In this document: in pieces, positions 18,240-56,743 of the stretch
Layout: each line of letters begins with the position of its first letter
Position numbering within the stretch: position 1 is the stretch's first letter
The notes under the pieces: model-generated
Told to the model about the DNA's origin: nothing
The model's database searches: none
The model's input: only the letters and a program-made list of their open reading frames with translations
Made by a program: the position numbers and the translations under genes
Virus record (IMG/VR): IMGVR_UViG_3300005098_000017
Coordinates: 1 to 64,000 of that record
Length of the DNA stretch: 64,000 bases
From: a virus
Strand: one strand, 5' to 3'

Positions 18240-18252
18240 TCATTAAATTGAC
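18240..18252 (-). promoter_or_regulatory. putative phage promoter GTCAAT-N4-TG(A)
   Basis: Intergenic, followed by an A-run. Confidence 0.55.
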
Positions 18253-19127
18253 GGCTACTATTTTTCTTTTCCGTTAATCACTTTAATCTCGGTTTCATCA
18301 TTATGAAGAACCATCATTAACTCATCCCAATAATCTGGACGTGATTCTGGGTTTTCATATCCTTGTATTAATTCTTTAAAGCTAAAACCGATAAAACCTG
18401 TATTAGTAGCAACAAGAAACACCATGTCATCGGGTTTGATATACATTACTTACCTCCCGTATTATTGTTTAATTCTCACTAATTTCTTACAATCTTTTGG
18501 TAGCATTATGATAAGTGGATATTTGAAGCCCGCACCCGTAACATTACCTCTTAGCACCTTACATTCATAATTTCCATCAGGCATAATTACAGCACATACG
18601 ACTAATTCAGTTCCCTTTTTTAGTTTTATTGAACCAGATGCAGAACCACTAATCTTTAATATAAGCTCATTTTTAAGAAGTAATCTTGTTCCTATATCGA
18701 TAGGCGCCGGCTTCTTCTTACTAGCCTTCTTCACTGTCTCTACTATATGAGCCGTCCTTTTCTTTGCTTTTGCCTTCTTTGGGCGCCTCATGCTTTCCTC
18801 CAACCTAAATATTTAATAATATAATCAACAATATCAGTTAATAGAACATTAAATTCATCTGCCTCCTCATCGGCACTTATTATAGAAATTATATCCTTTA
18901 TTGGAATATAGACATATTCCACCCTCAATACACCACCACCAGTATACTCATCGGGGTCATAGTACATAAACATATAGCTATCATAACTTAAGGGATATGT
19001 GGAAACGTTACTAGATGGTGTGTAATCCATAGCCAAGTTCGCCACAATATGCCGCTCCAGATGCTCATCAGGAAATACATAAATGCCATTTTCTGTCCAC
19101 GCAATTGTTAAGTTTGATGCTTTCATG

Positions 19128-20489
19128 TTACACCTCCTTTATGCCAAGTGCAAATGTTAACGTATCTGTTTTATCATCAACCTTATAAAACCCAGTTCTC
19201 ACATTAAAGTCAATAATCCCATTTACAACCTCACGGAGATACTCCATAATAAGATCTTTATCAATGTCCTGAGATATATCAGCAACAACAAGCTCATCAC
19301 AGTTTTTACAATAACTCTCGCAGGCTTCCCTTATATCATTTCGTGTAATCACCGCTACTATAGGATTAGTTGAGCTATTCAGATATATTTCTGTGACATT
19401 ACCATCTGTATCCATAAGGTGCGCCTTACCATTACCATCTTCGTATATTTTAACTACTCGCCACTTATCACTCATTATGATCCTCCTTCTTTAATTCACT
19501 TCTTAAATAATAACAACCATCATCATATACAATATTTTCATCACCAAATAGTCGTGATTCAACGAAACTACCGAATGAATCATATATATTTCCATCATTC
19601 AAACATTCTGTAAGCAAATATTTCAACAACTTTTCACTACATTCAGGATAAAATCTCTTTAATGCTTTAAGAGTAATTGCGATACCAACAACTTCTTCAT
19701 CGTCAGTATCAAAATTATCCACAACCTTTGCATATGCTACACGGTGTCCTTGTATATCCTCGATAACAATTAAATCATTTACCTCTTTAACCTTCACTAC
19801 TTTCCACTCATCCACTTTTAACCTCCCTCTTCATCCTTTTTTGGCCTCCTCACATGCAATATGGTATGTATAACTTACCATATGCTCCCATAAGTCGTGC
19901 CACATATCACTAAGAAGCCGCGCCGCTATATGCCGAAGGAACATGTCTGTTTCCTTATCTGTTAGCTCTCTATCGAGAAGACTATTGCTATTCAATTCAT
20001 CCTTACCGATAGCAAGAAGATTAACAACATGACCGCCGCGCTTCAATATAGCACATTCATACTTATTACCATTAACATCTTCAAGTTCAAATTTCGTACC
20101 ACTCCTCCATTTTATTTTGACAACATTCCATCCATCCATTTTGATTACCCCGGTAGTTCAATATTATATTTTTCTGCAGCATCTTCAATGCCAGCCCATA
20201 ATACATGCTCTAAATTCTTATATATTGGATTTAATATGTCATCTAATATATCACCAACATATTCTAATACGTAATCCGCAAAATCATCACTAATATCCAT
20301 ATCTACTGTCTCTCTTATATACTCCTTATTAACAAGTGTCAATCCTACAGTCCTGTCATTACGTTTGATTATTTGACACAGACACCTCTCTCCATCGATG
20401 AACTCTATCCTAAATACCGTATCAGAAATCTTCTTTATTTTTGCTATCTTCCACTCATCCATTTTAATCCTCCACCTTCTCAGGTTCAC
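19128..20489 (-). other. four tandem paralogous genes (M-D-x-W-[KRN]-[VI]-[VA]-K-[IV] N-terminus)
   Basis: ORFs 19128..19475, 19468..19815, 19831..20139 and 20145..20462 share the N-terminal motif. Confidence 0.7.
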
Positions 20490-22135
20490 CTATGGCAATA
20501 TGAGCGAAGATCCAATCAGCTGCCTGCTCTATGGCAAGCATTTCGTTGGCGGCTTCAACCTCTAAATATCCCTTTACTTCGATGTCATCTATTGCATTTG
20601 TAGCTATACCCCAAGGGATCTTAAACTTCATGACTCACCTCCTTAAATTTTGATTCAAGCCATTCGAGACATTTCTGAGAATGAAAATAATTCCATACAC
20701 AATTGGGGATTCTATCAAATTGAGTTGTTGGTTCTAAACTTATAATCTTATGCTCAGGGTTGTACCATATAAGAAAGACTTCACGGTCAAGAAGTTTCCA
20801 TATGCATTTATCAATTTTTCTGTTGCTGCTTTCTAACTTATCATAAAATAATTTATTAACAAGGTAATAGTAATTACTCCCATCTTTCACCTTCATCATT
20901 ACACTTCTCCTCCTTTTTATTCAGCTCTTCAACACAAAAAACTGCCGCCGAACCAAGTACGAAGATAAGCATTGCTATATTGTGAAGCTTCTGCATGTCA
21001 ACTTTATTTCTATCCTTTCTATCACGAATATAACTATCTATAGCAACAAACAGTGCTTCTACAGGTTCAACATTGTTGCGGCAAGCTGTTTTAAATAGGT
21101 CAATGGACGGATTATCTAAATAACGCTCCCAATCTCTCCATGACATAATGTCCTCCTTTTAAACCGTTACGAATTGCGAAACTAACTCTTTTAATGATCC
21201 CTCTTCTATTATGTACCCATTATAATTAGCAACTATGACATACCAATTCATGGGGTCACTTCGATCGCGTGATGGATACGCGTGTGGTGGATACACAAAA
21301 TATAAATACTCTACATCTCCATGCAAATAGGGCTCTAGTTTTCCAAGTGGTACATACCTCGAACCATCATTATCAGTAGTTGGTGGATCGGCATCAAAAA
21401 CAACAGCCGTAAATCCATATCCCAATGTTAATTCTGATCCTATTCCTTTTTCTTGCTTACACCAATAAACCCAGTTTGCAGCCATATATTCACCATTAAA
21501 TCGCTTACACCAATACTTATCTTCATCTAACCATTTATTAAATCGAAGAAGCCGCGATACTATTCCATATTCCCCTTCTGGGTACCCATCTGAATGTACA
21601 TATGTTATATATGCATTATCGTACTCTCCTATTCTATCGACAAAAACTACATGACATCTTGTGGACATTATTACCTCCTTTTTTCGATGGGGCAGCCCCG
21701 AAGGACTGCCCCTGCACGAAAGGAGCCATCATGAGGATGGACACTTAAGGACTATGTAATCTAGATAAACTATACAATTTAAGCTTTACACTTGCCTCAT
21801 CAATAATCCATAATGGCTCCTCCATCTCACCATAATCAGGATTAACAATAATCCTAAAATGAAGCTCGCCTATTTTATTGCCTGCTTCATCCTTCAAAAT
21901 AGCAATAAGATTCTTCCTAGCATAATATGCTGGATCCCAATTCCAATTATCAGACCAAGGAAAAACAATGACATCAAGAACAGATTCCAACCTAGGTTCC
22001 ATATCCAGAGCTCTGTTCCATATCTCTTCCTCTATCAACTCATATATATGTCCCATTATCACCTCCTTTGCAAAATCAGCTGAGGTGACCCACGAAGGGC
22101 CACCCCAGCCTGTACGGAGCTGCCATGAGGAGTGC

Positions 22136-22681
22136 TTAGAAGCCTACATCATCATCCATATCCTTCGGAAACGGAGGTTCTTCATCAAATTCCTCTTCGT
22201 CCTCCTCACCCACAGGAAGCTCATCCTTCTCTTCATCCTCGATATCCTCATCTGCGCTCGCGCTTGTACGCCCATTATACGGTCTCTCACGGATAAGATC
22301 CCTTATTGTCTCATCGAGATACAGATAGAGTAAATAGAGCTCATGTGAATCAAGAGGGAAGGCCAGCTTCTTCGCTTTCTTCTTGCCTGTCTTCTTGCTG
22401 ATCGTCAGGAAGAAGGTATCTTTATAGAGACCAAAGGATAGCACGCTACTTCCCTTACCGCCAGCAAGAGATGCATCGTGTATGAAGCGGACCTTCTTAC
22501 CTTTTCGGACGCCAAGAGCCAGCTGGGCGGCTTCTGTTAACCCAAGCTTCATCGTTAATCCGTCATCCATGTTGAAGCCGTCGCCCTCCTCATCAGCAGG
22601 GTACAGAGACAGGTAAATACTGCGGTCCTCCACTCTAGCATTGGCTCTGAGATACACAGACTTTTTGAAAAGACTCAACAT
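22136..22681 (-). CDS. putative ssDNA-binding protein (Whirly-like) with acidic tail
   Basis: KLGLTEAAQL..FIHD and PLDSHELYLL repeats resemble the Whirly fold; C-terminus EEEFDEEPPF..DDDVGF. Confidence 0.5.
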   Translation of the reverse strand: MLSLFKKSVYLRANARVEDRSIYLSLYPADEEGDGFNMDDGLTMKLGLTEAAQLALGVRKGKKVRFIHDASLAGGKGSSVLSFGLYKDTFFLTISKKTGKKKAKKLAFPLDSHELYLLYLYLDETIRDLIRERPYNGRTSASADEDIEDEEKDELPVGEEDEEEFDEEPPFPKDMDDDVGF

Positions 22682-22699
22682 AATAACACCTCCTTTAGG

Positions 22700-25600
22700 T
22701 TAATTATTATTCTTTTGATTCAAAAATGCAAGTGCTTTTTCCTCTGTTTCTGCTATTGTTCTTCCACAATGTGGACATACCCACTTGTTCAATCCGTCTG
22801 TGGAAGTGATATCATATGGCCAATCATCATATGTTCCATCTGGATTAAGTTTCCAGCTTACAAAACACTCTTGGACGTTCTCTAAATATCTTATTTCCTT
22901 ATTGCAATGTGGGCATATTGGATAATTCTCCTCCTTGCAAGCGCGAAGTTCAATACGGCAGTTGTACCCTCGCCTTTTCAATTCTGCTATGATATCTTCA
23001 TATTTCCTCAGCCTTTCTATTACTTCATCTTTATCAACCTCATAAATGTTTGCCAACAATCGATCAACCATATTTATCAACTTGGTATCTGACATATCCT
23101 TAAAATTCATGTTCGATCTCCTTTCAGGAATTCAAGCGCTTCTTTCTCGTTATGCGTTAGTTACCTCCTGTGAATTGACTTTTATAAGAAGCCCGCCGTT
23201 CTCCTGCAACTCCTCTGGATCAAATTCCTCAACCTCCATGGCGTGACCGCAAGCAAATGCCACCTTTCTCACATTCTTAACATAGTCGTCGGGATCTGTC
23301 ATATAGAGAAAAACAGCACCGTCTTCGATAAGCGCGTGCACAATAACCTGATTCTTATCATTGTAACATTTTATTTCATTACTTATTTCTCCGCACTCTG
23401 GACAGAGCCATCCCTTGTACATGGAGCAACCTCCTTTCTTGCGAATGGGTTTATAAATCTTTCAAATTTCTCTCTTATGAGAAGCTCGGCACACCTTTTA
23501 CATAAAGGGTAATTTGCTTTGAGGATTTCTATGAGAGCATATGAAGGCGGGGCTTCTTTTATCTCCTTTCCGCATATCGTGCAACGCATAACGATCTCCT
23601 TTTTTTTATTTGTTTGTGTTCTTTCAGAATCAAGTCAAAACAGGTTACTTAACCACTTCAAAATTTTCCCTTCTTGTCTACCTATCTTTATGCCAAATGT
23701 GTCACTAAGCTCCAATAGTATCTGCGCTCTACCCGCTTCCATTGCCCACCAATCCCGTTCTGGGATGTCTGCTTCATGTATGTAATCATACAGTCTACTG
23801 AGGAAATCGTTTAACCACTCTTTATCCTCAGATAGATCCCTACCATCATCGTCGTATATTGATATGTCAAGCGTCTCTGCGCCCTCATTGATAACGGTTA
23901 TTGCAAGGTCATGTATTTTATTTTCTATAATTTCTACTACTTCACTCATACAGCCTCCTTTCCTTACCATATTAATATTTCACCAAAATTAATTGCAGAC
24001 CAATATTCCTCCATTTCATAAAGCTTTGTTTCCAAGAACTTCCTGCTCTTCTCACTTAGTTTGTCACCATATTCCTCGAGGATCCTACTCAACATGCTCC
24101 TCCATTCCTTTAAATCCTCATAGTCACTTCTATGTATTACCATTTATTTCCTCCTTTTCAAAACACAACTCAAGATGTGACCTATAACCTCTACTCTCCA
24201 GTTCATCCATTATAAGTGAGAATTCATCCCACTCATCATCAGAAATATTGGCATCACGAACCATAATAGCATAATGCAATTCCTTCGCCCTCTTTATGAG
24301 GTCCTCATCTGTTGCTCTTATGATACTTGCAATCTTCATTCTTCTTACCTCCTTTACCTTTAATAATATTTCTTATTTTTGATTAATCAATAATTTTTTG
24401 TCCATTAAATTGACTTTTGTAGTTGTCGTCATCTGACACAGCTAATGGTAAAACGCTTATGTGGCCTTTGTTAGCCTCCTTACATTTATCTAGGAATGAG
24501 AGAAATGAATATTCATCCATTATGAGGTGGAAGCCGGCGGCCTCATCACTTGCCCGTACCGTTCTGAAAAAGACAAATAACTCACCATTGTCAACACTAA
24601 AGTTAATCCCTATCATTGTTACTCTCCTTCTCAAGCAACTTATCAATCAATCTCTTTATATTTTCTATTTCCTTTTGCAGATCATATATCTGCTTCGTTA
24701 CTATGCTTAGGCATATTTCTAGATCTTTCAGCCTGCTCATATTGCTTCCTGGTTTTGATTTTATAGACCATACCAAATTTATAATTCTCCGGATCGATCC
24801 ATTCATGAAAATGTTTTGGTAGAACCCTACGGCCCTTACGTTTGTAGAATGCTACCTTCTTTCTCTGCTCCTTCATTACTGATCCTCCTTCATAAGAGGA
24901 AGAAGTGAGACCCGGTTGCTCGAAAGGGGGTTGTTTCATGGACCGCGCCAGGCATGCTACGCGGAGGAAGGCCGGGCCTCACCATACTTCTTATGTCTCC
25001 CTCAATAATCTTTCCTTCACATAAACCTCGAGAAGCGATCTGAATACTTTACTACTGCAGAAATGCTTATCCATTACGAACACATGATCTCCTTCGGTTC
25101 TTACTCGTTTGTCCCGTGTGTGACCGGCTTCAAGAATACTAAATACATCATCATCAGAGAGGCGGACCTCATTACCATTATCATCAATCCTCAAAACAAA
25201 TGCATCGGGCGAGATTCTTATTAGCATAATTACCTCCTTTTAGATTTATATCTACTAGTAAACGATTTGTCTCCTCAAATTTCTCTCCATATTCTATTCC
25301 CATAATATCCGCATATTCCTGTATCAATATTGGTGCAAAGAAATAAAGATGCTTATAATGTCTATCATTTTTTCTATATCTATGTTCGACAGACAGGTAT
25401 AAAGAAGTAAGTAATTTCGTATGACCCTTTGTTATCAGCAAGTCATATAAGTTGTCATTAATAACAAGATGAGTTTCATCAGAAGAAAATAGTTTTGGGA
25501 AAATGCTGGATTTAGAATGATACACCGATGCATAACGGTAATAATATTTATCACTCATGACAATCCATGGCATATCAACTGGCATCCTCACAAGATTAAC

Positions 25601-31783: not shown

Positions 31784-31796
31784 CCAATAAATTGAC
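31784..31796 (-). promoter_or_regulatory. putative phage promoter GTCAAT-N4-TGG
   Basis: Exact motif upstream of the gene starting at 31718. Confidence 0.65.
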
Positions 31797-40957: not shown

Positions 40958-40970
40958 CCAGTAGATTGAC
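40958..40970 (-). promoter_or_regulatory. putative phage promoter GTCAAT-N4-TGG
   Basis: Exact motif pointing into the repeat/ori region. Confidence 0.65.
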
Positions 40971-43704: not shown

Positions 43705-46700
43705 TTATGACCTCCTTGCTAGATCTTCTATATCATCACGGATCATCGCGAGGAACCTATACAGGTCGTCTGCAGATGCTTCGCCTCTTTCGTACTTATC
43801 CAGAAGTGTGACGATTGACTTTCTTAGTTCTATCAGGAAATCGGCGGCTTCATTATCAAACGAGACGGATGTGGCAGCTAGCTCTAACGCCCTATTTATA
43901 TCTATTTTACTCACTTCGTTCTCCCCGTGAGTTTATCAGCCATCTTCGCGGCACATTTTATACAGTACGGCCCGAAGGTTTTTTCGGTCTGAAACGCTCG
44001 ATAGTCATCCTCATCATCGCTGGTTTTTCTTATGTTACCAGCAACGATGAGGAATGCGAGGTCCTTCGGACCATAATTTTTACCACATATTTTACATTTC
44101 CATTTTTTGTTTTTCTTGAATAGCATACTCATCCTCCTTTTCAGGTGAGGCCCCGCTCCTGCCCCACCCCGCCGCCCCCATCAGCTTATTAAGCTTCTTG
44201 GGCGGCCTTCTTCATCGCATAAAATTCCTTGAGCTCTTTTGCGCTCAAGCCCAGCTTAACAGCACCAGTCATAATAACAGGCACCGATACCACAGGTGGC
44301 GCCATCGTTGCGATGATAGCACCAGTTATAGCTCTTCCTACATTCAGCATGGATTTCAGCGTGTAATGTTTTATGTCTTTACATTCCTCAGGTCTTATAT
44401 CCTTGGTTAACGCCGTACTTCCGAGGACGACCTTGGCAACGGGCCCAACGATCGGCAGCAATGTCAGGCCAGCGCCGATAGCCATGGTTGGCTTATCGGC
44501 CTCTATGATCGCGTTTCTTGCCGTTTGATATTTTTCCTTTATGAAGCCGCGGCTTCTTTCTGCTATATCCTTTATCTTTTCGCGCGGCTTCACCTTCTTT
44601 ACTTTCATAGCGAGTTTCTTTACCACATTACACCTCCTTGCTTCTGATTTTTATTAGCTCCTCCTCTATTTTTATATCAGGATCCATCACAAAGAAGATG
44701 AGGCGCGCGTACCTGTTAACAGGATAATCAGGATAACCACCGATTGTTTCCCATGTGTGCAGACATATTATATATGTATCGCTTTTATACACGACCTCAA
44801 GCTCATCATATGTGCAACAGTCTCTTAGCATGTTACCAGAATTAGCTATCCATCTCTGTCCTACTTCTGCTTTTTCTAGGTCACTCCATGTAATCGTAAT
44901 CTCATCGCCCTCTCCATTATAGTCGAGGGCCGCGAGTCTGAATGCAATGTTCTGCTGCACTGTTTCTACCATCCTAATACCTCCTTGTTTGTTTTAGTTA
45001 CCACTAAATTGACACCCGCCGGGCTTCACTCCTCCTCATATTCCTCCTTGTAGTATTTTTCCTGATCCGGTAACAATTCTACCAATGTCCCGCAGTATAC
45101 GCATTCATATGGAGGGTTGTCGATCCTGGCATTTTTTCCCGTCCACATTCCACACACAGGACATATCACATTGCCTGTAACGCTTACATCACCTATAACG
45201 GCGATTTTTTCACACATTTTTACCTCCTTCCTGCCTTTTTCCTTACTGTTAAACATTATCCTGCGGGGCTTCCGCCCCCACCGCCCGCCCCTTAAAGGCG
45301 GCGGCTTCTTATGTCCTCTGACCCTATGATACACAATATAAACGATGCTGCTAATAATGGTAACACAGCGAGTAACATCTTGATCCTCCTTTTGTGTCAG
45401 ATCGATTCCTTTTTCTTCCCAAGCAGTGCACTCAGTTGGATGTATATGCTTATAAGAACGCTCGCGATTAACCCTATTATCATGCCGGTTACCCCGACGA
45501 ACAGGGTAACCCCAACAGCTACCAGAATGCAGCTGATAGCGAAGTCTCTTAAGTAGCGATTATCCTTGAGTCCCTTTATCAGCCCTCGTTTCTTTATCTG
45601 TTTCAGTCCTTTCGTCAGACTTATATACATCCATACTAAGCCCGCGGCTGCTATCAAATATAACAGCATGATCACACCTCCTTGCTTTTTTATTCGCCAT
45701 TTGATTGACCGAGCGGTTATGATATCATGGCCGCCAATGCTTCGGTGGCTTCCGGCGGCCCTTCTTTTTCTTTCTCTTGTCCTCAAACACCCTGCCCGGC
45801 TTAATGGGACCGATTACCTCCCTTGATAGGTATTTAATCATTTTCAGCACTTCGCTGCCGGGCTTCTTTCCTTTGCGGCGCTTCCTCTTGCTCATTACCC
45901 ACCGCCTTTGCGAAAAGGGGGGAGGGGGCCCCAAACATCAGGACCTCCTCCCATCTGCTCTGGCTACCCTCAGCTATTCTTAAAACGGCGCTTCCTCGTT
46001 ATCTTCCTCCTCAACTGGCTCAGGTGTGGATGCAGGCCTGCTCCGATGCCAGCTCGGACGCATGAACTCACCGATCGCTACTTTACATATCATTTGGAAC
46101 ACTGGAAGGGTGCAGATCTTGGTCTTGCCAAGCTTCACAACCTTACCATCGGATGTGAGGGTCTTGATGGTACCATCGTTTCTTTCATGCATAATTTTCC
46201 ACTCAGGTTTCGCTGCGCACATGGCAACCTCGGTACCATTTAGGCTGATAGAATTTCTGATAGCGTTATTGCTTGTTGAGCGGAGCATGATGAACAACCT
46301 GTTAGGACGTCTTTGAACACTAATACCACAATACGTCTTGTCAGTAATACGGAAGGTAAACACGCTACACCTCCTTTCTTTTTGGTTTTCCAGTTGATTG
46401 ACTATGCTTAATTTTGGTTTCCATCTCCCTCGTGTGGACAGTAATATATTTTTACATAGTCGTAGATTCTGCCAAGGCTGTCGCCATAGTCTTTTCTGAA
46501 GATCAGCATTCCGCCTCTGCCGAGCTTGAACCTGACTGTCCTCTTCTTACATTGCGCAAGCCCCGAACTCCAGGAGCGTTCGTGTTTCTCTACGATTTTA
46601 TAGTTTCCTGCTAGGATTCTGGAGTCGGCGCTGAAATTAGCGCCCATTCCGTCCAATTCCTCGACCTCGTGCTCCTCTTCTTTTCCGCATATTTCAATTA

Positions 46701-48123
46701 TTATCTCTACGTTCCCCTTTTCCCAGGATTCCCAAGGAAGATCTGGGTACCTTGTCTTGGCTTTTTCTATTACCTTTTTCCTTTCCATTTTACCTCCTTT
46801 CTTTGTTTTTTAATACCATTAAATTGACTTTTTGAGGTAGAATGGTAGCGCTATTAGTCCAGCAATGAGGCCGCCGCATTGGGCAGCTGTTACATTGCCA
46901 GTTAAGATCGCAATGAGAAGTGATGTTGGGAATGCAACCGCGAAGCCGACGGCTGCTCCCCTTAATGAGGCTCTTAATACTCTCTTCATTTCCCCTCCTT
47001 GTTGATAAACGAGCGCACTGTGGTTATCAATCTCTCCTTAGCCTCCTCGGCGCGCTCCTTAATCTCTTTCTGTCCTATCCTTTTCAATCTCAGGAATCGG
47101 AAGAATCCTATGACTCCAACCGCTGCTAACACGGCACCCACTGTGCCGCCTAACAACAACGCCAATATAGCGGTAACCCAGCATGCAAAGTCGGGCTCAT
47201 CGCTGATTATGTATGGTGCGAAGTAAGCAGGGATGGCCAATATGATCCTATGCATTTTTACCTCCTTCTGATGAGAACATCATAGCTATTATCGTGCCTA
47301 GACAAAAGCCTAGCAAAAAGCTAATATATCCTATATATTCCGGGATCATAGTTCTCTTACCTCCGCTTTTATGTTTTCGAGTCCCTCCTTCTCAATCTTT
47401 TTTACCATGTTTCTGAGGCGGGTTATCATTACCCACCTCCGTATTTCATTGATGATTATGCCGATTCCGATGGCTATGAGGAACAACCCAGCAACTACCA
47501 TTGTGCTTTTTGCAGCTATATCCATTAGAACTACCATTTATACCTCCTTTGACTCCAATAATGCTTTCTGAAGCGCGTCTATGATGAATTGCGCTTCGTG
47601 ATTCCATAACTTCTGGACGAAGATAGCACCGTCCCGATAGTTGATAAACGAGATCATGATCTTCCGAGGGTCATACTTGTCATTAACCGTTTGCACCGAT
47701 ATCTCGAGATCTTCTGATTTATACTCCATTATTATTACCTCCTTTTTTTTATTCCATCAGATTGACCCTCCTCCCCTCCTTGGTATGGCGGGGCTTATGG
47801 TGGGACAAGGGGAGAGAGCTTGGTGAGGGAGACCTTTTAAGGGATCAAGGTGGGAGAGGGGAGGAGAGCCGTGTTAATCCCTCTTACTTATAATGTATTT
47901 TGATTAGAGCCTGCTTTCCATACTTCCATCTAAGCCTCCGCTTCAGTTCACTAACGTCCGCAGCAAAAACCTCGTGGAGGCCGTCAGTTCTGGTAAACTT
48001 CCAGCATTTTATGTTACCAACCTGTGTCGGTTTCCCGTGTGGAACATAAGCATGTACTGTCTCCTTCGTCCTCACGGAGATTATATCTATGTTTTTTACT
48101 AACGGATAAAATTTCAACGACAT
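43705..48123 (-). other. run of small hypothetical and membrane genes
   Basis: ORFs with RBS; several are preceded by the GTCAAT-N4-TGG motif. Confidence 0.65.
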
Positions 48124-48148
48124 AGAATACCTCCTTTTTTTTAATGTG

Positions 48149-48201
48149 AAGCCCGCCATTAAATCGAAGCGCGCAACCCGGCGGGCTTAGGTCGCGCGCT
48201 T
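48149..48201 (-). ncRNA. leader H-type pseudoknot
   Basis: Hairpin loop AAGCCCGCC pairs with downstream GGCGGGCTT before the RBS. Confidence 0.65.
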
Positions 48202-48226
48202 ATTTTTTATTCCACCATTTTATTGA

Positions 48227-48886
48227 CTATAGCCAGTCGACTTTAGCATATGGCTTGCCGTTTACATACCACCTCTTCTCGGACGTTATGAGCACGGTTT
48301 CATAGCGCTCAAGTGGGTAATCGTTACGCTCCCTCACCACGACAGCTTTAGGCTCAGGGATGATGGCATCGGTACCATGTGGAGGTGTGGGAGGGAAAAT
48401 TGAAACGAGCTGACGTGGAAGGATGACAAGAGAAAGGTGTTTGCCTTTCTGTTTGATGCGACTCCTGATGGTCTTCTCGAGACCCTTCTCGACGATTACG
48501 TAGCCATACGAATCCGCAGCCTCCTGGGCGAGTGTGTTCGCCATTTTATTCCCTGTTCTGGCTGTGTGTTTTACAATAACCTCCTTATGCTGGTTATCAG
48601 CGTAGTACCTAGCCAGCTCATATAATTCCATAAGCTCAGGCTTCTTAATATCATATTCTTGGTTAAACTGCTTCACCACTAACTGTGAGTCGCTGTGTAT
48701 TGTGGTATCACCCTGGATGTACTGGCTAATGTATGTCGCAAGAACTAGTGCTGCCCATTCAGCCTCGTTGTTTGTTGCCTCCCCAATGGGTATTGATAGT
48801 GATATACCAACCTCCGGAATATATATCCCAATCCCAGCGGGACCGGGATTGCCTTTTGATGAGCCATCAATGTAAATGTTAGTCAT
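48227..48886 (-). CDS. rnhA: ribonuclease HI
   Basis: [35 protein letters not shown]. Confidence 0.93.
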
Positions 48887-49752: not shown

Positions 49753-49778
49753 AATACCTCCTTATTTTAATGTTTTAT

Positions 49779-49833: not shown

Positions 49834-49855
49834 TTTTAATTTCCAGCTGATTGAC

Positions 49856-50221
49856 CTATACAAGAGATGGTCCAACTGCATCCTGAACCTGAGGCTTTCC
49901 ATACTCAAGCTTCCACCCATTCTTCGGTCGTAAATTTCTCTTGAACCATTCGAACCATGCACGATCCATGACAACGATCTTCTTACTTCTTCTGAATGCA
50001 ACTGCAATCCACTTGCGGTTACCAGTCCTGTTAATCCTGAAGAACCATACGATATCATTAGCATGTAGTTTACCACTGCGTACTAGCCTGGCCCACTGGC
50101 TGCTCTTCTCAGGATTCTGAGCAGCCAATACAAATGTGTAACTATTTTTCCACCTCGCTATAGAGGTGGTGCCTCCCAGAATCTTGGGGAGGTTGATTTT
50201 TAGAAACTGAGTCAATGACAT
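49856..50221 (-). CDS. hypothetical protein (paralog of 16490..16834)
   Basis: Start moved to the ATG at 50221 after GAGGAGGT. Confidence 0.7.
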   Translation of the reverse strand: MSLTQFLKINLPKILGGTTSIARWKNSYTFVLAAQNPEKSSQWARLVRSGKLHANDIVWFFRINRTGNRKWIAVAFRRSKKIVVMDRAWFEWFKRNLRPKNGWKLEYGKPQVQDAVGPSLV

Positions 50222-50245
50222 AATACACCTCCTCTTTTGGAGGTT

Positions 50246-50303
50246 GCCTGCCACTTTTACCCACAGATAAGGCGAGGCCGGCAGGCTTTACCCCGCCTTA
50301 TCT
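50246..50303 (-). ncRNA. leader H-type pseudoknot
   Basis: Loop GCCTGCC pairs with GGCAGGC. Confidence 0.65.
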
Positions 50304-50412
50304 TATCACTCCAGCTCATTGACTCCATCACGAGCCAACAAGCCGGCCAAACCCTCCGGCACTCTTGCGGCACCGCTCCTCGCAGGCCGCACACAGGGGA
50401 GGAGAGGCTTGG

Positions 50413-50479
50413 GGAGGCCTCTTAGACCCTCTATGAGGGAGCTCCAGCGCCACGTCAAGGCGGGCCTCCAGTGCTGGAG
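50413..50479 (-). ncRNA. HDV/CPEB3-like ribozyme fold, copy 1
   Basis: P1 CTCCAGC/GCTGGAG; P2 GGAGGCC; P3 GCC/GGC; L3 TTGACGT; P4; J4/2 TCTAA. Confidence 0.75.
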
Positions 50480-50577
50480 TAGCCCCCCGGTGCGGGGGCT
50501 TCATTTTTTTCACCTCCTTTCTAGCGGGATGAACTAGCCCGGCCATCTAGCCCATCCCGCGGTTTAAGGTTTAACCT

Positions 50578-52983
50578 TTAATCAAGTTTCCAGAAGTTGA
50601 GCCAGAATTCGCGATCGGCAGTAGCAAGAGGATGAAGACCAACAGGGGTTTTGATTCCAAGAATCCGCGCGAGCTGCCAGTTGCGCTTCTTACCAGTATG
50701 CAGTTCTACAAGAAAGCGTACATGTGCTTCAAGATCAGATTCAGTACCGGCAACAATAGCCAAGAAATCGCTCTCAGCGACAGTAAGAGATTTCCAAGTG
50801 GTAAGAATCGCCTGAGGTTCAAATCTAGCAAGAAGCCTGCGGAAACGCCTGTTTAGCCTCCGGAAGTTCCTAGTAAGAAGTACACGAAGTTCAGATACTT
50901 TACTCGCAAGGAAGCGCCGACGCCTGTCGAGCTCTCTGCGCCGCCTGCCAAGGGTAGCCAGAGCATCAGAAAGGTGATCAAGCCTAGGTAGCAGCCACTT
51001 TTCCATTTTTCGCCTCAGAACTTCGTTTCTGATCCCAGATGCTAGGAACCTGACTTTAGTTTCAGGTCTCGCATTAGCGAAGAGTCTACGGCTCCGATTA
51101 ACTACCGTATCAATCGCCGTTACTTTCTCTGCAAGAGCATTCACTTCATTCTCTATCTTCCGTATTCGAGAGAGCGTCCGTCCGAACATGCGCCTCCTTA
51201 TGCGATCCCACTTGAGGAACAATGCCTTAACTTCTGGATCAATGGTGCCATCAGGAATAAGATCCTTAAGAGACCTAACCTCTGGCTCAGCAAACTCAAC
51301 TTCAGGAATAAATTCAGCAAGAGGACCTGTTGGAGTTATTGCTACTGGATCCGCCTTCGCAGTCCTATTAGCGATCATTTGAGTAACAGTATCAAGCCTG
51401 GCAGTCGTACTCGCGAGTAGATGCAGTCCCGCTTCTACCTCATGACGAAGCTCCGGTTCTTTACCATTAGCAAGATTCACTGCAGCTTGGAGTAGCGCTC
51501 CAGTTCTCGCAACAAGATCCATATTAAGTTCAGTATCAGAAAGAAGCATTCGGGTAAAACCAGCATCAGCTCTCGCAATCATTTCCTTACCCAGCTCAAT
51601 ATTTTCCACTTCGGTACTAGGATCCATTCTCCACTCTCCGAAAGATATCTCCTTTATCCGGCTTCGTACGCTATCGAAGAATTCCTTAGCAACGAGAGGT
51701 TCCTTGAAGACCTTGGATGCCGCGGCGAGAGCCACTTTGTCGCCATCGGCATCCCATCCGCTAGGCATATCTGCAGGGTGTACCAGAATCGCATGCGCAC
51801 GATGGTCAACAATAATAGGAAGGATAAGAGTATCACCAGGCAAGATGGGCGACTTCTGTATGAGTAGGAGTTCTCCATCTTTCAGACCAAGCATCCGTGC
51901 AATCACAGGAGGAATAACAGCAGTGCCGGGATGTGCATTCTGAAATCCCAGATAGAAGCCCGGGCCTAGTCTCAACTTCCGAAGTGCAATCTTTAAGTGG
52001 TCCAGAAGCACTCTCCGCAGGAAGCCTGCCTCCTTTATGAGGCCGAATTTCCGCAGAATATCAGCAGTCAGAGTCAGCACTGCACTAGGTTCATTGATCG
52101 GATCAGCGTTTTTAACAAGGATATCAGCCGCTACCTCAGGATCAGAAAAACCATTAATAGCTTCAGCAATCTGCTCCTGAATCCGTTCAACAAACTCAGG
52201 CGCTGGATTAACATTCCATCCGAGTTTCCTTGGTAGAAGGAACCAGCGCGGCAGAGCTTGGCTGAGACTGATGCCGCCCGCGAATACGGCACCAACCTCA
52301 TGCAGCATGATGGTTCGCCCGAGTTCGAGTACGAAGCGCCGCCTCTTGATGAGTTTTGCGGTGTCAGCATCAGCAACGATATCAGTCCCTGTTTCCAGCT
52401 CCGTGAGGACCTCATCTGCAAGAGCTTCATTTCCAAGATACAACATCAGCCTCTGGAACCCAACTCTGCCGGGAAGAACTGGTACCGCTATCCCTTTCAG
52501 ACCAATAGCAGTCACTTTAAATCCATTCTTCACAAGAGCACGGGTAACCTTAGAAACCTCAGCCTCTGTAGGAGCATATGCTGCTGCCACAAGTTTTGTA
52601 AACCGTTCGCTAACGAAGAAGATCCCATCCACATTCATTTTCATATTGAGCTTGAGACCACGGATGCGAAGATCCATACCAGCCACACGTTCCGGCTTGA
52701 AATCCCAGCCTTTATTCGGAATTTCCGGCGTTGTCATCATCTGGATGCGCTTTCCAGGAAGAGATCTCAGATCAAATTCAGGATCACCGAGAATATTCGC
52801 AATCACTCTATTAACAGTCTCTATAGCAGAAGTAGGAACCACCTTGAAGATCCTACAATCTGGAATCATAGTAGGCTTCATTGGAAGATCAGAGTTCAGA
52901 TCAGGATCAAATGCGAAGAAGACACTAGCACCAGCTTCAGTAAATAACGCTTGCAGAGGAGACCTCGGTATTCTTTCCATCAT
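50578..52983 (-). CDS. single-subunit two-barrel RNA polymerase (YonO/cellular-RdRP-like)
   Basis: VDGIFFVS, GLKGIAV, QKSPIL and catalytic DADGD in the expected order; RBS AAGGAGGTGAT before the ATG at 52983. Confidence 0.75.
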   Translation of the reverse strand: MMERIPRSPLQALFTEAGASVFFAFDPDLNSDLPMKPTMIPDCRIFKVVPTSAIETVNRVIANILGDPEFDLRSLPGKRIQMMTTPEIPNKGWDFKPERVAGMDLRIRGLKLNMKMNVDGIFFVSERFTKLVAAAYAPTEAEVSKVTRALVKNGFKVTAIGLKGIAVPVLPGRVGFQRLMLYLGNEALADEVLTELETGTDIVADADTAKLIKRRRFVLELGRTIMLHEVGAVFAGGISLSQALPRWFLLPRKLGWNVNPAPEFVERIQEQIAEAINGFSDPEVAADILVKNADPINEPSAVLTLTADILRKFGLIKEAGFLRRVLLDHLKIALRKLRLGPGFYLGFQNAHPGTAVIPPVIARMLGLKDGELLLIQKSPILPGDTLILPIIVDHRAHAILVHPADMPSGWDADGDKVALAAASKVFKEPLVAKEFFDSVRSRIKEISFGEWRMDPSTEVENIELGKEMIARADAGFTRMLLSDTELNMDLVARTGALLQAAVNLANGKEPELRHEVEAGLHLLASTTARLDTVTQMIANRTAKADPVAITPTGPLAEFIPEVEFAEPEVRSLKDLIPDGTIDPEVKALFLKWDRIRRRMFGRTLSRIRKIENEVNALAEKVTAIDTVVNRSRRLFANARPETKVRFLASGIRNEVLRRKMEKWLLPRLDHLSDALATLGRRRRELDRRRRFLASKVSELRVLLTRNFRRLNRRFRRLLARFEPQAILTTWKSLTVAESDFLAIVAGTESDLEAHVRFLVELHTGKKRNWQLARILGIKTPVGLHPLATADREFWLNFWKLD

Positions 52984-52996
52984 ATCACCTCCTTTC

Positions 52997-53103
52997 CGCC
53001 GCGGATTTCGTTGCCCTCGGTGCGGCACTCCGAGGGTCGCCGGGCTTCGAGCGTCATTGGTGCCAAGGCTGGCCATAGAATGAAGCCCGGAAATTCTATG
53101 GCC
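52997..53103 (-). ncRNA. two tandem leader pseudoknots of the RNAP gene (53040-53103, 52997-53036)
   Basis: Loop CCGGGCTTC/GAAGCCCGG; loop TGCCGC/GCGGCG abutting the RBS. Confidence 0.6.
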
Positions 53104-53155
53104 ATGGCCGGGCGCCTTGACACCTCTGCTCTTTCGCGCATTTTATTTAACCTTA

Positions 53156-53596
53156 TTATCGATTAAATTCTCCATCCAATACAGCAAGCAGTAATCTTTG
53201 GAGTCTTCTTGGATCGGGTAAACCATATGCAATTCCATAGATTGGGGACCATGAATCCACATTCACCCTAACTGTTGTTCCCAAAATTTTGAATTCGAAA
53301 GCATAATCATCGATAGTATAGCTACCCTCCATTACCGATTGGAAAATGAGTGCGTCTACTAGATCCTCACAAGCCCACTCCGGATGTTGCTCAAGAATAA
53401 CTCTCTGGATCTCTAAAGTATCACACCAACCCACAATAACTCTACGTTCATCATCCATAACGTACCCCGACCGCAGATGCAAATTGTACCATTTCTCACC
53501 CACCTTGGCAGTTACCCAAGGCGGTGAGAAGTAGTAGTCGCCGACTTTAACTTTGTCGGCGATCCAGTCACCGATTACGTCCCACAACCATGACAT
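53156..53596 (-). CDS. hypothetical protein
   Basis: RBS AAGGAGGT. Confidence 0.7.
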   Translation of the reverse strand: MSWLWDVIGDWIADKVKVGDYYFSPPWVTAKVGEKWYNLHLRSGYVMDDERRVIVGWCDTLEIQRVILEQHPEWACEDLVDALIFQSVMEGSYTIDDYAFEFKILGTTVRVNVDSWSPIYGIAYGLPDPRRLQRLLLAVLDGEFNR

Positions 53597-53627
53597 TTTA
53601 CACCTCCTTTAGTTTGACTTTCTTCTC

Positions 53628-53699
53628 GAGGGACTCTTAGATCCCGCATAAGCGGGAAGCCCCGGCGCCACGACAAGGCGGTCCCTCAAAAAGCCGGGG
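53628..53699 (-). ncRNA. HDV/CPEB3-like ribozyme fold, copy 2
   Basis: P1 CCCCGGC/GCCGGGG; P2 GAGGGAC; P3 GCC/GGC; L3 TTGTCGT; J4/2 TCTAA. Confidence 0.75.
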
Positions 53700-54170
53700 T
53701 TAACTCAATTTGACATCATTATTATCCTTCTCTTTCTTTATCCACTCTATCAATTCATCCACTAGGCGCTCCACATTATAATCATCAATAATAAGAAGCG
53801 CCCTCCTGACCTTGTAGCCGAGCACCTCATGCGCTTTTAGCACATGCCTCGGCATCCAAGGCCAGGTCTCATTGTATCCCCCATTATATTTGATTTGGAG
53901 AAGGATTACCTCCTTCTTATGGGGGATACCAATGCTGACGTCGATTTTAAATACGACGTCAGCTTTACTCCCGACAGGATAGTCTATTAATTTCCATCCC
54001 GCCGGAAGCTTGGAGGATAGTTCTTCAATGAATCTATCCTCCGCTTCGAAGCCAGCTCTATGCGCCTCATGTGCGATAGAGCTAACCTCGAAATCCGGGC
54101 GGATTATTTCATGACATTCCGCCCAGAATTTTCGCGCTATAGTGCGGGCCTTCTCCATTTCATTTCTCAT
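53700..54170 (-). CDS. PD-(D/E)xK-family nuclease-like protein
   Basis: G..AE, ADVVF, LLQIK. Confidence 0.6.
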   Translation of the reverse strand: MRNEMEKARTIARKFWAECHEIIRPDFEVSSIAHEAHRAGFEAEDRFIEELSSKLPAGWKLIDYPVGSKADVVFKIDVSIGIPHKKEVILLQIKYNGGYNETWPWMPRHVLKAHEVLGYKVRRALLIIDDYNVERLVDELIEWIKKEKDNNDVKLS

Positions 54171-54233
54171 TTATTACTCCTCCATATGCATTCCGCCAAG
54201 GAAGTGACAAGTCCCCAAGGTCTTCTACCGTTG

Positions 54234-55070
54234 TCATAATATCACCTCCCTTACTTTGATAACAGGGTTAACCCAATCAACAAAATGATAGATTTTGTTT
54301 ATACGAGGGGGACAACCTTGGTCTCCCTTTATTTCGATATCATTATGATCAGCTATCCATACCTCATGAAACTGATTAAACAGTTTCTTAAATATAGGCG
54401 CCGCCTCCATCTCATATCCCGGCTTAACCTCTATATTATTCGCCAGAAGAACATTATCGTTACCGGTCACCGCTACCATAAGCGCACGAATCTTATTGTT
54501 TTCCACATCTTCCATCACATATGTGATGGCATCACCAAACGTCATGGTGTGCCATCCGTCATGGAAGATGTGTGCGCAGCAATGTACATGGAACCCTAAG
54601 AACGGAAATCTTGGATCTTTACGCGATAGTGGACGAAGTAACCAGCGTTCCGTTCTAATTACAGGTAAATCTGTTATGTCCACAGCCGGTAATGAGATCC
54701 ATTCCCGAAATAATTTCTGAATTTTACCACTATGAAGGTCTATTTTTGTATACCTTGGATGCCACCGCCAAAATTCTTTCCAAAATTCGCGGTGGCCATA
54801 TCGTCTAGCCCAAGATGTCACCAAGTTTTCCCTCGGTGACATCCTCTCATCGAGGCCTGTTTCATTAGCGGCCTCAATGAGATGGGGGCTTAGTGGCCCC
54901 CTAAACTTAAAGATATACCCTGCAAATTCTGGCCGCAAAAGTGGCGTTAGAAGCCACAAGGCATCGCGGCCGATTTTATTTAAATTATCACGGCCGTATG
55001 CCCTTATGGCTATCTCGATAAGAGGTTGCAATGTCTTATTCTTCATCAAGCCTTCCAAATATGCATTCAT
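54234..55070 (-). CDS. hypothetical protein
   Basis: 278-aa ORF with RBS. Confidence 0.75.
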   Translation of the reverse strand: MNAYLEGLMKNKTLQPLIEIAIRAYGRDNLNKIGRDALWLLTPLLRPEFAGYIFKFRGPLSPHLIEAANETGLDERMSPRENLVTSWARRYGHREFWKEFWRWHPRYTKIDLHSGKIQKLFREWISLPAVDITDLPVIRTERWLLRPLSRKDPRFPFLGFHVHCCAHIFHDGWHTMTFGDAITYVMEDVENNKIRALMVAVTGNDNVLLANNIEVKPGYEMEAAPIFKKLFNQFHEVWIADHNDIEIKGDQGCPPRINKIYHFVDWVNPVIKVREVIL

Positions 55071-55107
55071 TTTTACCTCCTTTATTTTTATACATATTCT
55101 CCATTTT

Positions 55108-55166
55108 TGCCCGCATTAGTTTACCAAGGGCACCATCTGACCTGCGGGCATTGATCAGATGGCGCC
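55108..55166 (-). ncRNA. leader H-type pseudoknot
   Basis: Loop TGCCCGCA pairs with TGCGGGCA. Confidence 0.65.
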
Positions 55167-55233
55167 TATATACAAAATGGGCACCGTATAGTCATGGTAA
55201 CAATACGGTGCCCTCACAACATCCCCTTTTATT

Positions 55234-55310
55234 AGGGTGCTCTTAGACCCTTAGGGATTGGACCTAAGGGAGCCCCTCCACCACGTCAAGGTGGCACCCT
55301 ATCGGAGGGG
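55234..55310 (-). ncRNA. HDV/CPEB3-like ribozyme fold, copy 3
   Basis: P1 CCCCTCC/GGAGGGG; P2 AGGGTGC; P3 ACC/GGT; L3 TTGACGT; J4/2 TCTAA. Confidence 0.75.
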
Positions 55311-55363
55311 TAGCGGGGTCTTGGACCCCGCTCTTGACTCTTGAGGCCGGCCGGTTTATTTTT

Positions 55364-55636
55364 TTAATATTTCCTGTAATCATGATACAAATGGATTATA
55401 CTTTCATACCTGCCAAATATTTTGACAGGCATAGCATGCAAATCTGTTACTTTCATGCCTTCATAGAAGAATTGACCTTCTCCAAAATACTTATGGAGAA
55501 GGTCTGTTTCCTTTATAGGATGATCTAGCAAGAACAAAACTCCTTCTTTTATAAACCCAATCACCGGCATGATAAACCTCCTCGCCGCACCTTGGTTCAA
55601 CTCCCAGTATGCATACGGTGCGGCACTTATATGCAT
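55364..55636 (-). CDS. hypothetical protein
   Basis: ORF between two ribozyme-like elements; weak RBS. Confidence 0.5.
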   Translation of the reverse strand: MHISAAPYAYWELNQGAARRFIMPVIGFIKEGVLFLLDHPIKETDLLHKYFGEGQFFYEGMKVTDLHAMPVKIFGRYESIIHLYHDYRKY

Positions 55637-55659
55637 ACTGGGATACCGGCCGGCCTTAT

Positions 55660-55734
55660 GGACACTCTTAGACCCTTAGGGATTGGACCTAAGGGAGCCC
55701 TCCAGCCACGTCAAGGCGGTGTCCTTCTGGAGGG
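55660..55734 (-). ncRNA. HDV/CPEB3-like ribozyme fold, copy 4
   Basis: P1 CCCTCCA/TGGAGGG; P2 GGACAC; P3 GCC/GGC; L3 TTGACGT; J4/2 TCTAA. Confidence 0.75.
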
Positions 55735-55786
55735 TAGCAAGGCCATCATGTGAGACCTTGCTTTGGCTTGGGCGGCAAATCCTTCC

Positions 55787-55993
55787 TTAAAATTCGTAAT
55801 ACCAGACTTTTTTTCCAATTCTTTCAATATATTTGGCAAGTTTCCTTACTTTTCTAGTAGGTCTACCACCTGTGTAAGCCATACCTGATACCAAAGGCCT
55901 AAGAAGACTGACTCTGCCATCTGGAAATAATTCCCCAACAAACCTGATCAAATCCTTGCCTATCCAGAGATCAACTATAACTGTCCTTGTCAT
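55787..55993 (-). CDS. hypothetical protein
   Basis: RBS AAGGAGG. Confidence 0.65.
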   Translation of the reverse strand: MTRTVIVDLWIGKDLIRFVGELFPDGRVSLLRPLVSGMAYTGGRPTRKVRKLAKYIERIGKKVWYYEF

Positions 55994-56006
55994 TTTTTCC
56001 TCCTTT

Positions 56007-56066
56007 CGCCGCGGTCAGTTTTAACCACCAGTGGGCCCACACCGCGGCATTTATGGTACCCACTGG
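56007..56066 (-). ncRNA. leader H-type pseudoknot
   Basis: Loop AAATGCCGCGGT pairs with ACCGCGGCG abutting the RBS. Confidence 0.7.
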
Positions 56067-56083
56067 CTTGCCGCCCAAGCCAT

Positions 56084-56154
56084 CGGACGCTCTTAGACCT
56101 AGCCACAAGGCTAGGAGCCCCTCCACCACGTCAAGGTGGCGTCCGTCGGAGGGG
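56084..56154 (-). ncRNA. HDV/CPEB3-like ribozyme fold, copy 5
   Basis: P1 CCCCTCC/GGAGGGG; P2 CGGACGC; P3 ACC/GGT; L3 TTGACGT; J4/2 TCTAA. Confidence 0.75.
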
Positions 56155-56207
56155 TAGCAAGACCCCAAGGGGCCTTGCCTCGTCTACGGGGGCGCCAATA
56201 GACCGTA

Positions 56208-56492
56208 TCAATAAACATCAACTAAGCACTTGATATACGGCCTGATTAAATACACATAATCTCCAATCCTCTTTATATTGTGGCTCGAAACAAGTTGCGA
56301 TTTAACACATACTTTCGCATGACTCGGAACTCTTATAACGTACCCAAAGTATAATCTTTGGCCAAGGAGGATCAAATCCTCCTTGTCCAAAACGATGACC
56401 CTGTGTGTGTAACCTTCATAGCGATCATCAGGGTATATTACTGCTGCAAATTCTTGCTCATGTATTCTCACATCTTCAATCCACACTATCAT
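56208..56492 (-). CDS. hypothetical protein
   Basis: RBS AAGGAGG. Confidence 0.65.
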   Translation of the reverse strand: MIVWIEDVRIHEQEFAAVIYPDDRYEGYTHRVIVLDKEDLILLGQRLYFGYVIRVPSHAKVCVKSQLVSSHNIKRIGDYVYLIRPYIKCLVDVY

Positions 56493-56507
56493 TTTATCCT
56501 CCTTTTT

Positions 56508-56568
56508 CGCCGCGCCTTGGTTCTACGCCCAGCATGTACGCGGCGCGGCATTTACGCACATGCTGGGC
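56508..56568 (-). ncRNA. leader H-type pseudoknot
   Basis: Loop AAATGCCGCGCC pairs with GGCGCGGCG abutting the RBS. Confidence 0.7.
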
Positions 56569-56743
56569 TGGCGCCCCCGCAATCCCCTATTAGCCGAGGA
56601 AGCAAATCAAAAATCAAGGGGGCAGGGGGGTCGAAATACAATCCGACCCCCTCAAAATCCACAATAGAGACCTCCTGAATTTTTTGCCGGTTTTTTGACC
56701 CTTATAGGCCTACGATTGACTCCATCAAATGGGGAATTACCTC

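Follow-up and report, generated by a model that had tools for sequence, protein, structure and literature searches.

In the T7-type strategy, the polymerase gene is transcribed early by the host enzyme and an array of promoters specific to the phage polymerase is then used; the late genes of T7 carry T7 promoters, and T7, T3 and SP6 use different promoter words. The jumbo phages AR9 and phiKZ encode non-virion multisubunit polymerases that use very compact promoters and serve the late genes, the AR9 enzyme further depending on a distinct specificity subunit and on DNA that contains uracil. In Thermus phage P23-45, a virion (gp96) and a non-virion (gp64) RNA polymerase (RNAP), both of them single-chain two-barrel enzymes, have two promoter classes, which were mapped experimentally; the virion polymerase is fused to the tape measure and uses a strongly conserved AT-rich promoter, and the gene for the non-virion enzyme lies inside that regulon (PMC10770324). 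YonO of the Bacillus prophage SPbeta serves one long late operon with one start site, and its promoter is undefined (PMC5467207). No account of the mechanism of motif recognition in P23-45 was found in the literature, and how minimal two-barrel RNAPs find promoters without sigma or general factors is largely an open question. Here, the repeated motif GTCAAT-N4-TGG was analysed in the first 64 kb (the window) of IMG/VR record IMGVR_UViG_3300005098_000017, a single 147,433-bp contig of an uncultured phage. On balance, the motif and the A-run that follows it were judged most likely to be a compact, asymmetric, middle-class promoter of ~25 bp read by a putative polymerase of 801 amino acids (aa) encoded by the same phage.

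The contig (genome G000; CheckV completeness 84%) carries minus-strand genes from ~76 kb down to 6.5 kb and plus-strand structural genes beyond 76 kb. Along the minus strand, host-type promoters are followed by an early operon with the polymerase gene last and then by the motif array, in a block with genes for RNase H, DNA ligase, YopX and a MoxR/VWA pair as well as numerous small genes of unknown function. The gene calls were rough and were made within the analysis. The polymerase and RNase H genes are placed as follows.

50578..52983, minus strand: putative 801-aa single-chain two-barrel RNA polymerase, catalytic WDADGDK at residues 410-416
48227..48886, minus strand: RNase H gene (PF00075, 1.8e-11), within the motif array

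The layout resembles that of T7 in that the polymerase gene ends an early region driven by host promoters with the phage motif directly past it, in that compact, co-oriented predicted promoters of ~20-25 bp are repeated ahead of DNA-metabolism and small genes, and in that related phages differ in the word. It differs in that the enzyme is not of the Pol A type (no PF00940 match) and has a predicted double-psi beta-barrel of the cell type with DxDGD, and in that the structural genes of this phage are without the motif; a T7-like scheme on a different fold is the most economical reading. P23-45 is similar in having a small non-virion two-barrel polymerase, a putative one in this phage, together with a second one, which here is an apparent one in a giant tail-module protein, and in having short conserved motifs upstream of the start sites (predicted ones here) that define the regulon of each enzyme. 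Its polymerases have no detectable sequence similarity to the 801-aa enzyme, however, and the 801-aa gene lies behind sigma-A promoters and outside the array, the promoters here being predicted from sequence. With YonO are shared a single chain of ~800-840 aa, collinear DG, KG, (K/R)SPxL and DxDGDK motifs at similar spacing, and a phage-borne gene directly upstream of the genes thought to be transcribed, but the targets here look like middle or replication genes and not late genes. The AR9 and phiKZ enzymes are sigma-independent two-barrel polymerases with short motifs immediately upstream of the start site, as is proposed for the 801-aa protein; unlike that protein, they are split into several subunits and serve late genes.

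All 11 exact copies of GTCAATNNNNTGG (GTCAAT-N4-TGG) listed in a first-pass annotation of the window were recovered at their coordinates, every one on the minus strand, where 0.46 would be expected by chance; none of 100 shuffles reached 11 matches. The one extra match in the genome (115592, plus strand) is without an A-run and agrees with chance. A position weight matrix (PWM) was made from the 11 exact copies and both genome strands were scanned with a cut-off of 12, and matches of at least 12 were confined to the minus strand within 18240-56687. By unbiased k-mer counting, GTCAAT was the top hexamer upstream of the block genes (15 versus 1.9 expected) when words of the ribosome-binding site (RBS) were set aside. 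Within 18-50.6 kb, GTCAAT occurs 20 times on the sense strand; at 15 of these sites the remaining motif is present too, and all 15 are intergenic or lie within the last codons of the upstream open reading frame (ORF) in a block of which only 11.7% is non-coding by these rough gene calls; the earlier description of the motif as co-oriented with the genes and placed at their boundaries was thus borne out at every full site. The near-matches proposed alongside the exact copies fared unequally: 18240 and 37320 scored above the cut-off, 41698 is weak (below 12) but conserved, and 23167 and 56708, which fall below the threshold and are without an A-run, were dropped. Two other weak PWM matches, at 53606 (overlapping an RBS) and at 56687, are doubtful. 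The array comprises ~14 copies (the 11 exact ones and the variants at 18240, 37320 and 41698) between 18 and 50.3 kb.

50311..50323, minus strand: copy 1, exact, PWM 21.8; first past the polymerase gene, followed by the pseudoknot-type leader A; orthologues L009:12663 and L022:6822
49843..49855, minus strand: exact, PWM 31.0; abuts the stop of the upstream gene, followed by leader B; orthologues L009:13134, L019:10215 and L022:7298
48215..48227, minus strand: exact, PWM 28.1; its span takes in the final base of the RNase H gene, and leader C comes next; L009, L019 and L022 each have an orthologue
47754..47766, minus strand: exact, PWM 34.3; 37 nt from G1 to the start codon, 117 nt to the upstream gene
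46816..46828, minus strand: exact, PWM 30.9; 40 nt from G1 to the start codon; edge of a swapped gene cassette
46390..46402, minus strand: exact, PWM 31.8; 39 nt from G1 to the start codon
45697..45709, minus strand: exact, PWM 31.1; 40 nt from G1 to the start codon; four orthologues with differing spacers and flanks
45001..45013, minus strand: exact, PWM 25.5; 41 nt from G1 to the start codon
41698..41710, minus strand: variant GTCAAT-N4-CGG without an A-run, PWM only 10.1; just past the DNA ligase gene; kept at L019:17822 and L022:14499; membership doubtful
40958..40970, minus strand: exact, PWM 33.7; 223 nt past the upstream gene, 56 nt ahead of the next start codon
37320..37332, minus strand: variant AGG with an A-run, PWM 14.9; followed by a ~115-nt multi-branched RNA fold ahead of the next gene
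31784..31796, minus strand: exact, PWM 29.2
24402..24414, minus strand: exact, PWM 26.5
18240..18252, minus strand: variant TGA with a long A-run, PWM 19.0; last copy of the array; 43 nt from G1 to the start codon

Alignment of the 11 exact copies showed that the motif is longer than first described. The A-run already mentioned in the first-pass annotation begins six bases past TGG and never shifts in register, all 11 copies having A at both +19 and +20 (counted from G1); a purine-rich position precedes G1, and the N4 spacer leans weakly to Y-W-R-N. The register was unchanged even at copies with the RBS 50-100 nt off, and the A-run was therefore considered to be part of the motif and not RBS context. 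Six copies have the start codon 37-43 nt past G1, whereas the three with leaders have it 102-104 nt away; six copies run directly into the RBS, and at the two copies with long upstream spacers (40958 and 47754) the motif stays near the downstream gene. The word is asymmetric, being neither a dyad nor a direct repeat, with 11 of the 12 genome copies on one strand, and it has no inverted repeat and no secondary structure of its own. The densest cluster lies just past the polymerase gene, as had been noted before, with eight of the 11 exact copies within 45.0-50.3 kb and the first copy 255 nt past the polymerase stop codon. A pairing of terminators with promoters was rejected for this phage, as no consistent hairpins were found in the 60 nt upstream of the motif and terminator-like sites were not enriched.

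The motif was compared with host-type promoters. The segment 17 bp after GTCAAT is the A-run, with no TATAAT-like hexamer at sigma spacing, and no sigma-A scan match of at least 10/12 coincides with any motif copy. An antisense sigma-A promoter formed by the reverse complement (ATTGAC) was rejected for want of a fitting -10 element. Promoters close to the sigma-A consensus were found on the same strand further upstream.

61484..61511, minus strand: perfect sigma-A-type promoter, TTGACA-16-TATAAT; intergenic, heads the operon upstream of the polymerase gene
61653..61680, minus strand: sigma-A-type promoter, 11/12, TTGACA-16-TATATT; intergenic
61149..61176, minus strand: sigma-A-type promoter, 11/12, TTGACT-16-TATAAT; intergenic

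A fourth (11/12, at 66626) is intergenic, co-oriented and also upstream of the polymerase gene. No intergenic, co-oriented sigma-A promoter of 11-12/12 was found within 18-50.6 kb, and the consensus scan of 40-58 kb showed no enrichment (38 versus 30.7). Consensus sigma-A promoters thus occur only upstream of the polymerase gene and supported motif copies only downstream of it, which amounts to separate gene classes. A search of the genome gave no match to Sigma70_r2 and none to a T7-type polymerase (PF00940). Neither k-mer enrichment nor inspection by eye turned up another conserved word that might serve the late genes or the 6.5-18 kb segment.

Three further features of these regions were recorded. 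A 10/12 sigma-A-like promoter (TTGAAG-16-TATAAT; window 41617-41644, minus strand) lies ~60 nt past 41698 and ahead of gene 41194-41616, the unit of which may use the host polymerase. The stretch at window 61453-61846 is a divergent control region between a PhoH-like gene (plus strand) and the early operon (minus strand); besides the tandem consensus sigma-A promoters it contains operator-like repeats, namely three occurrences of CCGTCAAC or near variants and two of ATTATCCCTACT. In the operon that ends at the polymerase gene, the spacers at window 53597-56207 (minus strand) hold repeated GC-rich elements with CACCTTGACGTGG and CTAAGAG.

No close relatives were found among sequenced phages, either by DNA or by tblastn with the polymerase, and none were found in IMG/VR. 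The comparative contigs (L009, L014, L015, L016, L019 and L022) were all fragments, unlike G000 itself. Sister phages gave eight PWM matches in L009 (polymerase 85% identical), nine in L019 (80%) and ten in L022 (93%), all on the gene strand and, bar one weak match in L022, all past the polymerase gene. At orthologous boundaries, the fraction of ungapped positions that differed was 41-53% in the flanks, 26% in the N4 spacer, 10% in TGG and 0% both in GTCAAT and at +20, a comparison that is partly circular because the sites were picked through the motif; such a conserved island in otherwise diverged spacers agrees with the promoter reading.

In L014 (polymerase 40% identical), three copies of TCAAAGTA[AG]TGGA or TCATAGAAATGGA, each with an A-run, lie within 1.3 kb past the polymerase gene. 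The GTCAAT word is absent from L015/L016 (38% identical), where GGAAAATAGGGA[AG]AA occurs ten times in the 7 kb past the polymerase gene and 0 times in the 10 kb before it (0.11 in shuffles); each of these copies reads in the gene direction and is closely followed by an RBS or a leader hairpin, L015 has hairpins ahead of its own word, and the word was not found in G000. The word is therefore the same at 80-93% polymerase identity, similar at 40% and different at 38% (three lineages, short contigs), and the lineage with the more similar word is also the one with the higher-scoring polymerase (340 versus 179 bits). This ranking fits a co-divergence of enzyme and signal among the three lineages, in all of which the lineage-specific words begin right past the polymerase gene. 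The 3' half of the word at L015:10947-17943 (ATAGGGAGA in two copies) resembles the start region of the T7 promoter, a likeness offered only as a lead towards a start site at GGG or TGG and not as a tested homology. L014 also has a 2-kb non-coding stretch upstream of the polymerase operon (L014:1234-3240) with at least eight copies of a ~20-nt AACGCCAGTATAGTGAG-like word; these repeats could be promoters of another class or iterons.

Searches of Pfam, PHROG and PDB sequences returned nothing for the 801-aa protein. Among 1.84 billion representatives, phmmer run exhaustively picked out three relatives (85%, 40% and 38% identity), and a profile search gave two further close relatives; the lineage is very rare (~six sequence clusters found among billions of proteins). 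Four invariant motifs follow one another in the order DGIFFVS (residue 119), GLKG (163), QKSPILPGD (376) and WDADGDK (410), the last being invariant across six homologues; YonO has TDGCG (249), IKG (271), RSPHL (492) and DNDGDK (535) in the same order and at similar spacing. The structure model of the whole protein was unusable (predicted local distance difference test, pLDDT, 45). A model of the core fragment showed a double-psi beta-barrel at residues 338-440 (pLDDT ~80-88), the best matches of which among 48,161 chains were the catalytic barrels of Pol I A190 (Z 11.8), archaeal RpoA' (Z 11.4), Pol II Rpb1 (Z 10.9) and the vaccinia enzyme (Z 10.6), the largest subunits of RNAPs matching at Z 10.3-11.8. 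P23-45 gp96 matched at Z 9.3 (22% identity) and P74-26 gp62 at Z 7.4, and the beta'-like subunits of AR9 and phiKZ were among the structural matches; Foldseek against the PDB returned generic barrel matches only. The first-barrel region, in which DG..F.S and GLKG are invariant and collinear with TDGCG and IKG of YonO, was modelled at pLDDT <50.

The nearest ESM Atlas clusters carry PF05183 (score 0.95, 24/30 matches), as language-model neighbours only. No match of the 801-aa protein to PF05183 was found at E values up to 10, and hhalign against YonO and against an 18-member YonO alignment gave probabilities of 0.2-0.3%; membership of the YonO family was rejected at the sequence level on the basis of the profile comparisons and the empty PF05183 search. 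The description of the enzyme as YonO-like thus stands at the level of fold and signature motifs and fails at that of profiles, and the protein is probably a two-barrel RNAP of a new lineage that works like YonO without being filed in its family. The motif GTCAAT-N4-TGG was not enriched in SPbeta (0 exact matches, seven with one mismatch versus ten expected), and the single GTCAAT of the yonN-yonK spacer, ~85 nt ahead of the forward primer, has no correctly spaced TGG after it.

Every lineage has RNase H along with the polymerase. In this phage and in the sister phages it is encoded a few genes downstream; it is directly upstream in the L015 lineage (L015:6943-7716) and fused to the C-terminus of the polymerase in the L014 lineage (L014:6497-9826). 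Its task may be to clear the RNA-DNA hybrids that a minimal polymerase leaves behind, or it may point to a priming role.

Taken as a promoter of the phage enzyme, the motif would work as follows. The host RNAP would start at the sigma-A promoters at 61.2-61.7 kb and transcribe the early operon that ends in the polymerase gene, and the new phage enzyme would start at the ~14 motif copies from 50.3 to 18.2 kb, yielding short transcripts of small unknown genes, RNase H, DNA ligase and the MoxR/VWA pair. GTCAAT would be the upstream specificity element, and TGG with the A-rich stretch the melting and start region. The start site could lie at TGG, with which GGGA of the L015 word may be compared, or in the A-run; a start at either would give a 5' untranslated region of ~20-30 nt or place a structured leader at the very 5' end. 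A wider proposal, which we put forward more tentatively, is that the 801-aa protein stands for a lineage, hitherto unseen, of minimal two-barrel polymerases in a single chain that recognise a ~25-bp asymmetric promoter without a sigma-like factor, the three sub-lineages with their different words forming an orthogonal set in the style of T7, T3 and SP6 on a cellular fold.

The idea of the first-pass annotation that the motif is a promoter for the phage's own RNAP is favoured by the strand, the placement at gene boundaries, the constant spacing to start codons or structured leaders, the conservation, the lack of sigma-A promoters in the block and the lineage-specific words; the YonO-like label that came with it is unsupported by profiles, and a rival reader in the tail module is possible. 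Several observations weigh on the other side. Neither the structural genes nor the final 11 kb of this gene block carry the motif; other promoters must therefore exist, none of which were found, and there are no terminators between the units. The polymerase has no significant sequence or profile match to YonO, PF05183 or solved structures. Non-polymerase barrels of the Cdc48 N-domain type match nearly as highly (Z 10-10.8) and only one barrel was modelled; the fold alone is not decisive because of these scores, and it is the DxDGD loop within the barrel that points to a polymerase. The co-variation of word and enzyme rests on three lineages only, and the word of L014 is short. Finally, a large ORF of the tail module with a GDWDTD loop is a second candidate polymerase and a possible reader of the motif.

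Genome 115714-122775 (L023:4715-11776), plus strand: 2,353-aa ORF of the tail module, possible virion-carried polymerase, MPFHPG...GDWDTD at residue 1802

The best surviving alternative, which we nevertheless consider unlikely, is that the motif is a promoter read by another enzyme, either this 2,353-aa candidate injected with the DNA or the host RNAP redirected by a phage factor; in the injected-enzyme variant the GTCAAT genes would be the earliest class, as for the promoters of the P23-45 virion polymerase. The MPFHPG...GDWDTD segment resembles the catalytic barrel of the largest RNAP subunit, and a dense array ahead of many tiny unknown genes resembles a host-takeover module. In P23-45, moreover, the strongly conserved motif is that of the virion enzyme, the motif of the non-virion enzyme being looser (PMC10770324). 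The virion enzyme of P23-45 also transcribes the gene of the second polymerase, however, whereas the 801-aa gene lies outside the array: no motif was found at this gene in L009 or L019, the weak candidates in the window and in L022 are several kb upstream of it, and the upstream operon is already headed by consensus sigma-A promoters. The arrays begin directly past the 801-aa gene in three lineages. This alternative is also disfavoured by the lack of a -10-like hexamer at sigma spacing and by the failure to find a sigma domain in the genome. As to the tail-module candidate, its polymerase fold is unproven and it gave no PDB sequence match. The plus-strand motif copy at 115592 lies ~120 nt upstream of its ORF; this copy is the chance-level one without an A-run.

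An action in RNA is improbable. On that reading the motif would act within a long polycistronic transcript as a signal for processing or cleavage, for stability or for enhanced translation, and would be read by an RNA-binding protein or nuclease of phage or host. The motif does lie on the sense strand only, between cistrons and near ribosome-binding sites, the units are not separated by terminators and are hence likely to be joined in read-through transcripts, and other repeated elements with putative RNA-like folds punctuate the neighbouring operon. Against this, it has no secondary structure, and at five copies, which precede structured leaders, 56-182 nt separate it from the start codon, a distance too great for an enhancer of translation; an RNA signal would leave the block otherwise without recognisable promoters and would not be expected to change its word along with the polymerase lineage. 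The alternative offered in the first-pass annotation, the binding site of a phage transcription factor (an activator or repressor) overlapping promoters of another kind, was found to be slightly less probable again: placement ahead of many genes would suit the operator of a regulon, but the word, which contains neither a dyad nor a direct repeat, is asymmetric and strictly on one strand, the 37-43 nt between motif and start codon leave no room for a separate promoter, and no sigma-A-like elements accompany it.

Least probable is that the motif is mainly a recombination junction offering short shared homology for cassette exchange among related phages, since thirteen bases with a free 4-nt spacer are very little homology, shuffling is known to arise at shared promoters wherever a regulatory word is repeated, and the strand bias, the fixed A-run and the fixed distance to the RBS would be left unexplained, even though one slot holds different genes in the window and in L022 between the same two bounding motif versions, with the insert missing in L009 and L019, and cassettes have therefore been exchanged at the motif.

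A phage polymerase with its promoter regulon is of a known kind; here the predicted regulon belongs to a very rare lineage of polymerases with a consistent tie to RNase H, a constant link which suggests how stripped-down polymerases might handle RNA-DNA hybrids. The system offers a sharp consensus with ~14 natural variants in each genome, and it extends over four sister genomes and a further two diverged lineages whose words are altered; because the motif set adjoins a small, probably expressible enzyme, promoter recognition and co-evolution are directly testable. If the enzyme is indeed self-sufficient, new orthogonal transcription parts would be available.

Structured leaders follow three of the motif copies.

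50222..50310, minus strand: leader A, after copy 50311; hairpin whose loop pairs with a downstream segment
49753..49842, minus strand: leader B, after copy 49843; paralogue of leader A
48124..48214, minus strand: leader C, after copy 48215; paralogue of leader A

Leader stems had been said to begin 7-13 nt past TGG; this is roughly so at these three copies only (~8, 11 and 15 nt at 50311, 49843 and 48215, respectively), six others leading straight to the RBS. Leaders A-C have a variable hairpin with a conserved loop, GCCYGCCG, that pairs with a downstream UGGCRGGC to form an 8-bp long-range helix, for which one compensatory change from C-G to U-A was found among 11 sequences from four phages. 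Nested folding flips between the hairpin and the long-range helix; from this alternation between two helices, the predicted element is a pseudoknot or a switch. The fold past copy 37320 (window 37151-37319, minus strand) is ~115 nt long and multi-branched (-53.1 kcal/mol, z -3.5). It is not a tRNA, no tRNA genes being found, and Rfam gave no match in the window, the leaders and the 37320 fold included, even at E values up to 1 over 36.9-57.5 kb.

The base composition of the contig showed two further features. Window 40000-58000, within which both the polymerase gene and the densest motif stretch lie, has a GC content of 44-50% versus 36-39% in the flanks of the same gene block, and this segment may have been acquired as a module. 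Several GC-rich short words, for example at window 15531, 36719 and 44543, occur far above chance in the AT-rich genome (GAAGCCGCG, 48 versus 0.54 expected; GGCGGGCTT, 33 versus 0.57; TAAGCCCGCCG, 12 versus 0.03), and many of them make mini-palindromes of the form AAGCC-SSSS-GGCTT within coding regions. The word AAGCCCGCCG is mostly antisense, and its strand flips where the gene orientation flips.

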